Positions 10,701 through 20,589 of a stretch of 64,000 bases of DNA are shown in pieces (position 1 is the first letter of the stretch; the number at the start of each line of letters is the position of its first letter). The stretch is taken from the NCBI GenBank assembly GCA_046563655.1, contig CM102283.1, forward strand, positions 806,001 to 870,000, given 5' to 3'. Made by a program: the position numbers and the translations under genes. Under the pieces are notes generated by a model. It was not told the DNA's origin. It worked only from the letters and a program-made list of their open reading frames with translations, and did not search any database. The DNA comes from Yuukianura sp. NJ FZ-2021 (Eukaryota).

Positions 10701-13700
10701 TTTGGTTATGACTACTTGATTTTGAATTACAGACCCACCGACTTGTCGCCTTTGTAGGTGTCAGTTCCGGTCAACTGTTAGCAATCTCTGAGTGGCTTAC
10801 AGTGTATGTGGCAGTACACCCTCATACAAACTGTAAGGAGTGTAACTTTCAACTGCAAAACATCGACAACAAATTATTCTACTGTGTTCCAGTTTTCTAA
10901 GTTCTGAGGTATTACAGAGGTCAATTAGTCGTAGTCCCCTTCGGCTGCTAGCTTACACAAATCGATTGCTTTTTTGGCAAGTCTCTGTAACACTTATAAG
11001 TAAGTTAACTTAATCCATGATTGTCTGATGTTATATTAATAATTTGACTTTTCGAATTTGGCAGGTTGAACTGCCACACAAAAAAAAATGTTGTTCATGG
11101 ACGGAGTCAACATACCATGAAATACGAAATGGGTGAGGACTGGGCCGATCATAATTCTTATTCTAACTGATGATTTAAAAGAACCAAATACTGATACTGT
11201 GACTTCCAGCTGATAACGGAAGTTTAAATGTCTAAAAACTGAGTTATAGTCTCTTGTTAGGTTAGGTCAGGTAACCTAATCTAACCTGTTAACTTGTGTA
11301 GGTGAATATTTTTACAGAGACTGGAAGTAAACAAGTACGGGTGCCATTAAAATCCCGTAGAAGTCGTTTTACTTATATTTCATTGCTCACATTTTCAGTA
11401 CTTATCTTTATCTCAACCACATTTGGAAATTCATTGGATTCAGAAGACTGTTTATCCAAGTGCTATTTTGTTTGTTTGAGGTAGGTGTTATTTAATACGA
11501 ACGTTGTATTTTCTCGAAAAAATGTAACAACTCATTTTCAAAACTCGTCTTTTGAAAATAGTATAACTGCAAGAAATCAAGATTTGTCTAAGATCAAAAA
11601 TTGTGGATGACGAAGTTGACTACTGGGCCCGTTAGAACAAAAAAAAACTTGCAAATCCAAGTTCAGTATTCAATTACGTATCCTTAAATACTATATGTTT
11701 TGATAATTCTGTTAGATTATTAGGTTAAGGTGAACTTTATACACTCGCTCCTAAGATTGGTCGAGCAAGGTTAAAACTTAAATTCAAAAATATTGAAGAT
11801 GCTTGTAGAGCAATGTAGAAATGAGGGAATTTACTTATATTACTTTGTAACTTGAATCAAGCTTATATATATATAAAAATATTAAATTAAACCTAAATTA
11901 ACTTTAAAGTTAACTTTAAATATTTCTTTTTCAAGTTCGTGTTTGTTAAGTTTGGATTTCTAAAAGTGAGAGTGTTTCTAAGAAAGTTCACGTTTGTCAT
12001 AAAATAAACTTTATATTTCTTTCAGTTTTGATTATTAAAATTCCCAATGGCTCGCAAAACGTTAGAGTCAGAATTATGTCATTGGCAGTTCTAATTATTA
12101 CTTAATTACTTGTTTTTGTTTTGGCAACAACGCGGAATTTTTATTACATTAAGTTTTGGCAATGCCTAAACTTAGGAGTTAGTACCGTAAATTTTATTAT
12201 AGTGTACTATAACTAACTAGTCCATTGTTGTTTATGTCACAATCAGTGTTGGTTGATACAGAGCATATTTCAACCACGCTTGAACTAGTTGGTAGTACTA
12301 GATTTTTAATGAGCGCTTATTCCATACTGAAATAATTTAAAAACCAAGTTAAGACAACGGGTGTATTATTTGTAATTTCATAGTAATTATGCAATTTTGA
12401 AGTTCCATACGATATGAGTTCCAAATACTCAAAGTGTGCAAAATTACTAATATATAAAAAATGTTACTTGGGCCTGAGATTGGCCAATTCCTGTAAGCGT
12501 TCTTTGACTTCTAGCCCTTATGAACCTTTTTGCAAGCATATTTTGCTTTGTTTTTGACTAACTTTTGTCACTACCTATTTCAAAATTATTGTTTCCTTGC
12601 ATTAAACTTAAATTTAGACGTAATAATTTCATTTAATGTACAGGTGAAATTGGATGTGAGATGCGAAAAGTGATCCTGGATGATCGAAGGATGAGGTGAT
12701 CTTTAACCTATAAATTTTGACCTTCAAATTTTCAGATACTGAATATTTTGTAGTAAACTTAAGAGACTGCCTTTTAGTAATTTTTTTTAGATTTAATTTA
12801 GATTTAGATTTAGGTTTAAATTTCGTTTTAGTGGACTATAAAAAAACGTCTAGAGGATACTGAAGTCCGCACTAAAATAGCTAGTCATGGATGTTTTTAA
12901 TGCAATCCTTCGCCGTGTCGTTTCTTTTTCTGTGCTAAGCATGTTGTGACGGGTTTATTTCCGCCTGTAAAAGAGGGACAATCCATGCTTACAAAGATTG
13001 ATCTGTCTCACTGGTTTCAAGCGGAAACCAAGCGATTTGCGTATCAAGGAGTTTTAGCGGAGAGTTGGCCTACAGATGATAATTATTCTTTTCCAGAGGC
13101 CGTCAGTGGTTGCTTATCCTGGCTAACGTCCTTCAATCTTATGGGTGACCCTTGCGATGGAGAGGACAACCTGGGTCCCGCGGAAACTGTGATTTCCAGT
13201 ACGTGCACCTCCACCGCGCTGTCTCCCGTGTGAACTATTAATCCCTCTGAAAAGGAAACTTTACGCATGTTTACTACGGATTGCAATGTTCCGATCGAGG
13301 TAATGAACGCGATGTCATTATAAAGTGAGTTTAATCAAAGGAAATTGATTATGCATATACTTCTAGCGCGCCCAAGGCGACTACCCTGTTTTAAAGAATA
13401 TAGGAATCCGACTTAATGAAGCGGACTCCGGCATTTATATCCTTGTGCTTGGCCCTTATGTTTACAAGGCTACCTCGTCCAACCCCAAAGCAGTGCATAA
13501 GGGGATTATTAAGACGGTGTCCGAGGGTGCTTTCCTGGCCATTTTGACGTGTAGAACCTGGAAGGACCGGCCAAAGGATATGTGGTTATAAGTTAGTAGA
13601 CTATGTGGGTTAAGGCTCTAGAATTATTGATTTTTTCTGGATCGATTAGATGTTATTGTTTTGAAGTGTGTCCTCACCCCTGCCTTCTCGTGTGGATAAG

Positions 13701-14219
13701 AGGATGGTGTGTCGTCCCCTTCTTCAGCGGGGAGGGGGCTACGGTGTGTTTGGGAAGTGGCGGGAAGGGTGGAATGTTTTGACTTTGAATTTTTTTTGAA
13801 GTGTGGTTTCAAGAGTTGTTTTTTTTTAAATATAGTTTTATGGTGGGTTAACTGCTAAAGGACGTGAAAGATGGTTAGAGTTTTTGTTGTTCCTTCTATG
13901 ATTGTACGTGATACTGTTATGGATACAATCAATGATGTGGTTGAGGGGAGTGGTGAAATTGCTGAACAGGTATGAAGCTGTATAGTTTGTGTTTGAAATT
14001 TGTATTTTATTTTTTTTCAAGTGGTTACTGGTTATTAGGTCTGTGGCAATTTTAATCAAGGTGGTGCTAGCAGTGGAGCTGACCAGAACGGTTTGTGTGG
14101 AAGTATCGGTTTGGTGGTATGTTTTCTAATCTGTTTTTTTTTTGAAAAAAAAATCGAAATTATAGAATCGACATGAGAGTATGATGTGGATGGTTAACAT
14201 TGGTTCAATTATTTTTCAG

Positions 14220-18779: not shown

Positions 18780-19232
18780 ATGGCTTCAAAGAAATCCATC
18801 AGTCGGCAAACGAGACCTCGACCAGTGAACGACAAGCTGTTATTGTGCTGGTTTAGCAAACGTGGGGAAGACAAAGCGATCAATATACGGCAAAACAGGA
18901 GCGCCACTGATATTGACTTTGAAGATGTGCCGAAACGCATCGGATACCTCTTCCAGATTTACATGGAGAATGGCAGTGATTCGAGAGAGTTGCCACGCAT
19001 GCAGATTACACACGACACGGAACGGCATCTCATGACGCTGAAGCATGAATATACCACTTCAGCCTCCCGAACATTCTGGAGTTGTTGCGACAAGTCGACT
19101 CCTCACCCATGGCAGGTAAAACATGACCAACAAGAAGTAGAGGAAATGACACAAGACGCTGACACTACCGACCGAGAAGAAACCAGACCGGAGTATCTTG
19201 AAACCGTCTATGAGACTACTGTCTACAACTAG
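18780..19232 (+). CDS. Hypothetical cargo protein B (150 aa), paralog of cargo protein A
   Basis: ATG in an A-rich context (ACAACAATGG); intact ORF; shared DFExxP..IG.LF....E......LP....H domain. Confidence 0.65.
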   Translation: MASKKSISRQTRPRPVNDKLLLCWFSKRGEDKAINIRQNRSATDIDFEDVPKRIGYLFQIYMENGSDSRELPRMQITHDTERHLMTLKHEYTTSASRTFWSCCDKSTPHPWQVKHDQQEVEEMTQDADTTDREETRPEYLETVYETTVYN

Positions 19233-20589
19233 TCGAAATAATAAGACTCTTACACTCAAAACTGTTCACCAGTATTTCGTTTACACTATAATAATTTTTA
19301 CGATTGATATTAAAATTTTCTTATTGAACTAGAGGATCTCAAAACGAGTCAATTAAATGAAGCGATTCTTCCTGGATTTTCTGTCATACACATTCATCTT
19401 GTTTGATTTAATTAAAGACAAAGTCTATAACAAGACGATGGGTTAGAATTTGGAATTTAATAGGAAAAAAGAAAAATACTTTTTTTTTGCATGACTCATT
19501 TTTCTTTTCAAAATCTTGAATTTTTTTTTTGAATTGCAATGGAAGTTTTTTTTAAATACGATACGACACCATCTACCAAGAAACGGCTCAAAACCAAATA
19601 GACATACAGCGCCACCTCTCACCCACAACTAAAAATACTACCAAAACGAACGAAAACGTTTTTCACAACATCCCGCCCAAAAAATTCAATTTTTCAAAAT
19701 TTTCCAAATTCAATTTTTCAAAACTTTCCACCCCTCCCGCCAACTTCCAAACACACCCTAGCCCCCTCCCCTCTGAAGAAGGGGACGCCACACCATCCTC
19801 TTATCCACACGAGAATGGATGAGGACACACTTCAAAACAATAACATCTAATCGATCCAGAAAAATTCAATAATTCTAGAGCCTTAACCCACATAGTCTAC
19901 TAACTGTTATACCCTAACTCATATACCGGCAAGTGTTATTTATTACTGTCCTGTACTAGTACGGTGTGAATCGTATTCATTTTTCGAAGGTGGACTTCCC
20001 TCAGATGTTTACACTAAGCCTTTTGATGACGTGCTACAGCAGTGCTGTCTAGTTTGTAAACATGAAAATGATGATGGGTGGTTAATAGGCCGTCCACCTG
20101 TCAGCTATGTTTTTGAACTGGAAGGAATGGATAGGCATGTAAGGACCCATACTCCCTGGGAAAATTATTACCAAGAATGCGTTTGTAAACGTAGGTGATA
20201 GCCGTGTATTCACCACGGATTGTCATCGTCTTATTGATTGCTCATCACAAAATGAGTGTTTATGTGGAGCCTACTGTGCTTCGGTAGGTTGCTTAAAATT
20301 TTTAGCGACTGCGAGATTAAAGCTAACCGCCAATGTTTACTTCTATTTGCAGGATAAAGAGAAAATCAAAGATGTGGTCAATGGTAAGGTGAGAGGGAGT
20401 AAGTCGGGGTTGTCAATTTTTCTGTGGCTTTTGCCTAAAAAATTTTCCTAGCCAAGCATTGTTAGAGGAACATTTCCGTACCGATTGCATTCGGTGTTTT
20501 TCCTGTTGGCAATTATGGACGAAAATTAAAGATAAGTTTGTGAGACTGCAAAAATATCGTCATGTTGTTAAAAGGGAGAAACGCGCGCC

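Follow-up and report, generated by a model that had tools for sequence, protein, structure and literature searches.

Mavericks, or Polintons, are mobile elements with terminal inverted repeats (TIRs) of hundreds of nucleotides and with target-site duplications (TSDs) that measure 6 bp (PMC8969392; this and the other papers cited below are represented here by extracts), and a Polinton is defined by genes for a protein-primed DNA polymerase B (pPolB) and a retrovirus-like integrase (PMC5499653). Intact vertebrate Mavericks measure 12.7–24.6 kb and have TIRs of 46–1,447 bp, perfect 6-bp TSDs and the end motifs 5'-(AGT)2//(ACT)2-3' or (AG)3//(CT)3 (PMC8097293). Polintons of Pieris butterflies that lack polB have stayed mobile, according to a 2026 preprint (bioRxiv 10.1101/2025.02.07.637071), and nematode Mavericks contain a 2–5-kb cargo region that adjoins the left TIR, is higher in GC (guanine plus cytosine) content and holds intron-containing genes (Widen et al., bioRxiv 10.1101/2022.07.12.499685). 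Here we describe an insertion of 6,315 bp, at positions 13591–19905 of a 64-kb window from Yuukianura sp. NJ FZ-2021 (assembly GCA_046563655.1, contig CM102283.1; the window is the whole stretch of 64,000 nucleotides analysed, and all coordinates refer to it), that has ends of the Maverick type and no recognisable Maverick gene. Given what the butterfly and nematode elements have lost or acquired, a non-autonomous Maverick derivative is plausible, and we assign a probability of roughly 50% to the reading that the element is a gene-poor, non-autonomous member of a family, inserted by a Maverick-type integrase.

The insertion is delimited by the following features, the duplications being read from the sequence and the TIRs found by repeat search and gapped alignment.

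13585–13590, no strand: left TSD copy, GTTATA, identical to 19906–19911
13591–13782, plus strand: left TIR, first bases AGTTAGTAGAC
19718–19905, minus strand: right TIR, last bases GTCTACTAACT
19906–19911, no strand: right TSD copy, GTTATA

The two arms are 192 nt (left) and 188 nt (right) long and appear in the repeat search as two blocks, one of 89 nt at 98% identity and one of 98 nt at 92%. When one arm was aligned by gapped blastn to the reverse-complemented other arm, 179 of 193 columns were identical, 8 were mismatches and 6 were gap columns, which form 3 events. The two arms start alike, with AGTTAGTAGAC, so that the element reads 5'-AGT...ACT-3', and its ends are AGTTAGTAG//CTACTAACT. 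The window contains two occurrences of the 25-nt terminus and no more (expected number from 100 shuffles, 0), the TIR pair is the sole inverted repeat of at least 60 nt in it, and no further copies of the ends were found elsewhere in the window, nor any match to the 19-nt TIR terminus in Joint Genome Institute (JGI) metagenome contigs. GTTATA directly abuts both arms and the seventh base differs, which makes the duplication exactly 6 bp; inspection of both ends revealed neither a repeat of 8–10 bp nor a way of parsing them as TA..TA with a flanking 6-bp repeat. The inner edge of the right TIR is overlapped by a 24-bp tandem duplication (19682–19730). An earlier, sequence-only reading of this DNA had proposed TIRs of about 200 bp and a perfect GTTATA duplication, and had taken these, together with the AG...CT ends, as hallmarks of Maverick/Polinton; the measurements agree with it, as do the published descriptions (PMC8969392, PMC8097293).

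The same reading had recognised no core Maverick gene, and this too stands. Pfam searches covered the four long interior open reading frames (ORFs) and 71 other interior ORFs of at least 45 amino acids on both strands, 75 in total, and returned no polymerase, integrase, ATPase, protease, capsid or transposase domain. The matches inside the element consist of one C2H2 finger and scattered sub-threshold hits at chance level. Lacking pPolB and integrase, the element is at most a non-autonomous derivative and not a Polinton proper.

Set against Mavericks as described in the extracts, the element is alike in its long TIRs and its perfect 6-bp TSD, and its AGT...ACT ends resemble (AGT)2//(ACT)2 without being that exact motif; it is unlike them in size (6.3 kb versus 12.7–24.6 kb), in lacking genes for pPolB, integrase, ATPase, protease and capsid, and in that the genes inside it either bear introns or are orphans. 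The polB-lacking polintons of Pieris, as presented in the preprint, resemble it as TIR-flanked insertions of the Polinton type that bear foreign DNA and are missing a gene considered necessary for autonomy, but they keep integrase, packaging and capsid genes and were shown to be polymorphic, whereas the element described here is devoid of any core gene and only putatively mobile. With the nematode cargo regions, as far as the extract describes them, it shares raised GC and intron-containing genes near the left TIR; the nematode cargo, however, belongs to complete elements and has an integrase as its neighbour, and the WASP proteases and KRMA kinases described there were not seen here. A search of the literature by phrase, which covered neither supplements nor Repbase itself, yielded little on short non-autonomous or truncated Mavericks, although the name of one Repbase entry, Polinton-N1A_NV, turned up.

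Other transposon classes were compared by the same features. TSDs characteristically measure 6 bp in Polinton, 4 bp in Ginger1 and 4–5 bp in Ginger2; IS3EU/GingerRoot elements also have 6-bp TSDs, produced by an integrase-related DDE transposase that acts on the TIR ends, and those ends are TA..TA in all complete IS3EU families and occasionally TG..CA (PMC10045372, as extracted). Ginger ends are given as TGTNR, with TSDs of 4–5 bp (PMC2836005, likewise). The element thus has the TSD length in common with IS3EU/GingerRoot, but its termini are AG..CT where theirs are TA..TA, and we rejected this assignment on that ground and for want of a TA..TA parse with a flanking 6-bp repeat. Ginger1 and Ginger2 were rejected since the ends are not TGTNR and the TSD is 6 bp, not 4–5 bp. 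Dada elements have TSDs of 6–7 bp and insert into small-RNA genes; no Rfam family reached its gathering score anywhere in the 64-kb window, and Dada was set aside. Mutator elements have TSDs of 8–11 bp, and Pack-MULEs, their gene-carrying non-autonomous members, have long TIRs around pieces of host-like genes and no transposase. Pack-MULEs are alike in these last respects, but the repeat flanking our element is exactly 6 bp, and there is no 9-bp repeat at its ends.

The interior is best described as two modules that meet at about position 16,780. The right module holds two ORFs and a nested miniature inverted-repeat transposable element (MITE).

17200–17718, plus strand: ORF-A, 172 aa from the first ATG (from the ORF list; stop-to-stop 17077–17718, 213 codons)
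17803–18456, no strand: nested Tc1/mariner-like MITE (perfect inverted repeat I3, Tandem Repeats Finder (TRF), contig depth)
18780–19232, plus strand: ORF-B, 150 aa, a paralogue of ORF-A (BLASTP and alignment)

ORF-A and ORF-B have a common core of 57 residues, 15 of which are identical (26%; BLASTP E=1e-9), in keeping with their earlier description as paralogous and novel, the searches having found no relatives of either. For ORF-A these were a word-indexed search, HMMER over 1.84 billion representatives, and viral contigs; for ORF-B, metagenome contigs. The only HMMER match to ORF-A, P0001 (E=9e-4), was rejected as spurious because it comprises six stretches of what we read as a repetitive EF-hand/IQ-like protein. 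An AlphaFold (AF2) model of ORF-A was uninformative (mean predicted local distance difference test score, pLDDT, 40.1). In codon-usage scoring all open frames tested scored at least 0 in frame, with the exception of an antisense ORF at 17019–17501, and codon usage weakly favours the coding strand proposed for ORF-A. About 400 nt upstream of ORF-A, a short ORF (16799–16915) begins with MASQKS, and ORF-B begins with MASKKS. ORF-A may have an upstream exon that starts at the ATG at 16799, with a possible acceptor at 17196.

Recurrence of parts of the element was assessed in Logan contigs from four sequencing runs compared with 13200–20300. Organism A, possibly the one from which the window derives, supplied three runs (X1, X3 and X4), all of the same sample, and organism B supplied the fourth (X5), in a separate study. 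Pieces of the element are present at 85–95% identity in contigs of both organisms, and a contig of organism B matches the right flank with some 90% identity (X5 record 31), which marks that organism as a related species. The summed contig depths in X1, which are not copy numbers, are as follows.

Most of 13.7–16.75 kb: 41–77 (one bin 16, one bin 210)
ORF-A: 187–260
MITE: 1,146–1,764
ORF-B: 421–743
Right subterminal region: 229–268

Exact single-locus contigs of the same run (records 5–8) have depths of 23–41, and the left-flank contig (record 1) has 73. The depth summed over ORF-A, ORF-B and the right subterminal DNA is thus several-fold above that of exact single-locus contigs, and sequences resembling the right half are more numerous than those resembling the left. 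Contigs that run from ORF-B through the inner right TIR occur in X1, X3 (record 16) and X5 (record 30), and in all three a joint takes the place of 19632–19721. The left module has a second, diverged version: X1 record 3 covers the inner left TIR and the adjoining interior (13705–14058) with 41 differences and 12 gaps, and X1 record 4 is a diverged left-module copy with a 323-nt deletion. The joints considered were the best-supported ones, and contigs drop variants, so that neither the missing joint 13590->19912, which would correspond to an empty site, nor the parts left uncovered by X3, X4 and X5 count as evidence. The joints 14153->19717 and 14150->19511 were considered as deletion derivatives and rejected, as their sides are short, about 20 nt, and fall in a run of T/A. 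In X1, the unitigs of both flanks break off precisely 30 nt within the arms (13620 and 19876), which we read as a branching of the assembly graph at the TIR boundary.

The border between the modules is visible in two ways. A contig of organism B (X5 record 27) matches only from 16789 on, with 131 unmatched nucleotides ahead of that point, and the summed depth steps between the bins 16518–16754 and 16755–16991; since the two coincide, the module boundary is placed at about 16,780 (16,770–16,790), and other copies carry different DNA upstream of ORF-A. X1 record 6, an exact contig that spans the border, is of single depth. ORF-A, ORF-B and the right subterminal DNA behave as the backbone of a family, whose copy-specific portion would be the left 3 kb. 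This makes doubtful the claim of the sequence-only reading that the element carries only cargo genes: the left 3 kb does look copy-specific, but the remainder behaves as a repeated backbone that is common to a second organism.

The left module (13.8–16.8 kb) has a GC content of 0.44 versus 0.38 in the flanks, and contains two candidate genes with introns and two minisatellites.

13871–15320, plus strand: C2H2 zinc-finger gene model of four exons, built by hand from a three-frame display
15547–15753, no strand: 18/36-bp minisatellite with the GCGGTGCC motif (TRF: period 36, 5.2 copies, 92% matches; repeat family D1)
15908–16371, minus strand: two-exon ORF, absent from the earlier reading (three-frame display)
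16685–16770, no strand: second 18/36-bp minisatellite, related to the first and in the same orientation (TRF, blastn)

The exons of the C2H2 gene lie at 13871–13969, 14039–14116, 14220–14453 (or –14458) and 14571–15320. Introns 1 (69 nt) and 2 (103 nt) are of the GT..AG type and preserve the phase. The strong donor of intron 3, GTGAGT at 14459, puts the finger exon into another frame, which runs into a stop at 14814, and the frame is kept only with the weak donor GTTCGG at 14454; judging from the splice signals, this copy would either use an unusual intron-3 donor or not make the finger protein. The zinc finger matches PF00096 with 24.6 bits (E=3.2e-5), just below the curated cut-off of 25.2, and the 249-aa finger exon had no homologue in the search run. 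The stretch that spans intron 3 resembles a chromodomain by eye, but neither exon, each examined separately and not spliced, matched one in Pfam, and no chromodomain chain was among the PDB matches to E=10. Of the chromodomain–zinc-finger gene with introns proposed earlier, the introns and, at its sub-threshold score, the C2H2 finger are thus retained, and the chromodomain is unconfirmed in these searches of single exons. The 3' part of the finger exon (15072–15262) is itself repeated sequence, with a depth of 210 in X1; a 234-nt contig of organism B at the same place has a depth of 262.8, versus 3–6 for other pieces of that run, and loose contig ends at 15072 and 15262 mark the edges of this repeated part.

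The minus-strand ORF consists of exon A, from 16371 or below down to 16128 with the first in-frame ATG at 16320–16318, and exon B (16065–15908), separated by a 62-nt intron (GTAAGC...CAACAG) that keeps phase. The predicted product combines a stretch rich in Ser and Thr with a hydrophobic span of 22 residues (LFWIL-VGLPIICACIFMVFKIW) and a basic tail, and is probably a small single-pass membrane protein; neither exon had a Pfam match. The gene is bracketed by the two 18/36-bp arrays, which are akin to each other (15585–15621 and 16745–16782 are 89% identical over 38 nt in blastn), and the second of them sits at the border between the low-copy left and the repeated right module.

The nested MITE has the structure TA|CAGTGAGTGCC...GGCACTCACTG|TA with 30-nt arms that are 100% identical. 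The perfect arms and the TA on both sides identify it as a MITE of the Tc1/mariner type, and its ends are of the CAGTG type, typical of Tc1. In each of the four runs, and in both organisms, its summed contig depth exceeds by far that of any other part of the stretch, and it was inserted after the 6.3-kb element. Joints such as 17831->18419 suggest shorter members of the MITE family without the interior. An 11-bp minisatellite (18084–18222, TRF) is contained within the MITE. All three minisatellites listed by the sequence-only reading are therefore present, but they are not three independent features of the element, as the 11-bp array belongs to the MITE and the other two are related to each other.

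It had also been argued that an open frame is restored in the target when the element is removed. The element together with one GTTATA measures 6,321 nt, a multiple of 3, so that the continuity of every frame after its removal is trivial. The frames do continue, but the gain is small: the 74-codon frame 13367–13588 runs just 20 codons past the joined site to a stop, and the frame 19896–20198 extends merely 13 codons upstream across it. Neither frame has a Pfam or other match, and the argument is accordingly weak. The flanks contain a series of overlapping plus-strand ORFs (12901–13233, 13367–13591, 19896–20198, 20143–20451, 20393–20605 and 20544–21056) with a codon usage similar to that of the long ORFs of the window, and the insertion site may lie inside a gene or pseudogene. 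Pfam gave no significant match for 50 flank ORFs, the best being a sub-threshold zinc finger (E=0.0036) in 20393–20605.

On the reading that we favour, a retroviral-type DDE integrase supplied in trans by another element would have joined the 5'-AGT...ACT-3' ends to target DNA cut with a 6-bp stagger, and the GTTATA duplication would then have arisen when the gaps were repaired. The 6.3-kb unit would have moved as such, with a repeated right backbone (ORF-A, ORF-B and right subterminal DNA) and a low-copy left module (the C2H2 gene and the membrane-protein gene), and the Tc1/mariner MITE would have entered later. Mobilisation in trans as a satellite or a gene shuttle, which the sequence-only reading had proposed, is an inference. 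In favour of the reading stand the anatomy of the TIRs and the TSD, its agreement with the published Maverick features and not with the TA..TA ends of IS3EU/GingerRoot, the lack of a transposase of any kind among the 75 interior ORFs, the pieces at 85–95% identity in both organisms, among them junctions of inner TIR and interior on either side, the unitigs that break off 30 nt inside the arms, and the butterfly and nematode precedents. Several points weigh against such a history. Nothing inside the element is homologous to any Maverick gene, which leaves the structure of the ends to carry the assignment; and with neither a core-gene remnant inside nor a second copy of the ends in the window, nothing ties the element to a Maverick helper. 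The end motif begins with AGT and finishes with ACT but is not an exact (AGT)2 or (AG)3, the motif data in the extract being from vertebrates only. The arms differ by 8 substitutions and 3 indel events over 193 columns, and the copy may be old and immobile. The contig depth cited for recurrence of the right half does not measure copy number. Finally, the match of the organism-B contig to the inner right TIR (X5 record 30) stops at 19822 although about 219 nt more of that contig follow, and the outer 83 nt of the right TIR may not be shared with organism B.

The first alternative is that a longer, gene-bearing Maverick-type element was inserted here and decayed in place, its core genes being lost later; the 6.3-kb unit would then never have transposed, and no helper would be needed. 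We regard this as unlikely. In its favour, the arms are just 93% identical, with 3 indel events, and a MITE was inserted later. The intron-3 frame problem and the nested MITE suggest that the copy is not young. The sharp module border at about 16,770–16,790, which lies beside a minisatellite and at which the organism-B contig (matching only from 16789) begins to align, also speaks for this alternative, as does the single depth of the exact contig across it. Yet the three longest ORFs (747, 639 and 567 nt; 1,953 nt) are uninterrupted, whereas about 15 indel events would be expected in them if the arms were identical at insertion and drift was neutral. Either the three ORFs are under selection, then, or the arms were never identical. 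In addition, the left module has another, diverged copy (X1 records 3 and 4), which speaks against decay at this site.

The second alternative, to which we give a similarly low probability, is that the element belongs to another, possibly undescribed, cut-and-paste superfamily with 6-bp TSDs, whose transposase is encoded elsewhere and for which ORF-A and ORF-B are family-specific accessory genes. This would account for the lack of any Maverick remnant whatsoever among the 75 interior ORFs and for the lack of relatives of ORF-A, ORF-B and the C2H2 ORF in the searches performed; ordinary DNA transposons typically form families of many copies with varying deletions and have TIRs of the length seen here, about 190 nt, and 6-bp TSDs are made by IS3EU/GingerRoot as well (PMC10045372). 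The termini argue the other way, being AG..CT where the same extract gives TA..TA for every complete IS3EU family, and the TGTNR ends and 4–5-bp TSDs given for Ginger (PMC2836005) also differ. Nor do the ends carry a 9-bp repeat, as the 8–11-bp duplications of Mutator and Pack-MULEs would lead one to expect. That there is no transposon at all, and that an inverted segmental duplication or two independent copies of a 190-bp repeat surround ordinary genes with GTTATA matching by chance, is very improbable even with a single copy of the ends visible in the window, as all six bases next to both arms would agree by chance about once in 4,096 cases, the repeat boundary meets GTTATA to the base, and interior parts recur elsewhere joined to TIR sequence.

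Elsewhere in the window, Pfam identifies host genes in 36759–37520, 46275–47246, 55188–57341 and 57995–59930, namely a PhyH dioxygenase, an EML-type beta-propeller, a PH-domain coiled-coil protein and a Cys-rich EB-module protein. The 322-aa WD/EML-like propeller ORF has a single database relative, at 58% identity, which indicates that the host lineage is poorly sampled. Two adjoining long ORFs on the minus strand at 4719–6267 (303 and 213 aa, no Pfam match) may be what is left of another mobile element; to the eye they look like regions that lie beside reverse transcriptases. The interval 32788–34859 is a tandem duplication with a unit of about 1.05–1.2 kb (four repeat pairs at 86–94%) and overlaps the hydrophobic-rich minus-strand ORFs 32606–33103, 33808–34155 and 34534–35001. 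Positions 26001–28000 differ from the rest of the window in composition (GC 0.308, GC skew -0.30, AT skew +0.26), and a 115-nt direct repeat at 91% identity lies at 25076–25190 and 28323–28437, 3.2 kb apart.

If the insertion is of the Maverick type, it could further be one of a compact family of Maverick satellites, in which an ORF-A/ORF-B backbone stays by the right TIR, the left end takes up interchangeable, intron-bearing, host-like genes, and a helper Maverick integrates and perhaps packages the unit; we consider this elaboration quite improbable. Were it true, animals would have in this family an equivalent of a gene-shuttling satellite, and ORF-A and ORF-B would act in propagating the satellite itself. 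It has been suggested that Mavericks carry genes horizontally from one animal to another (Widen et al., bioRxiv 10.1101/2022.07.12.499685), and how polintons without polB still move is the question of the 2026 preprint (bioRxiv 10.1101/2025.02.07.637071), both as extracted. A family with just Maverick-type ends and a few small genes would show the limit of reduction that is compatible with integration, and would provide a simple substrate with which to define the end sequences needed by the integrase. If the ends belong to another transposase, the locus would represent an undescribed family with 6-bp TSDs in a poorly sampled animal lineage.

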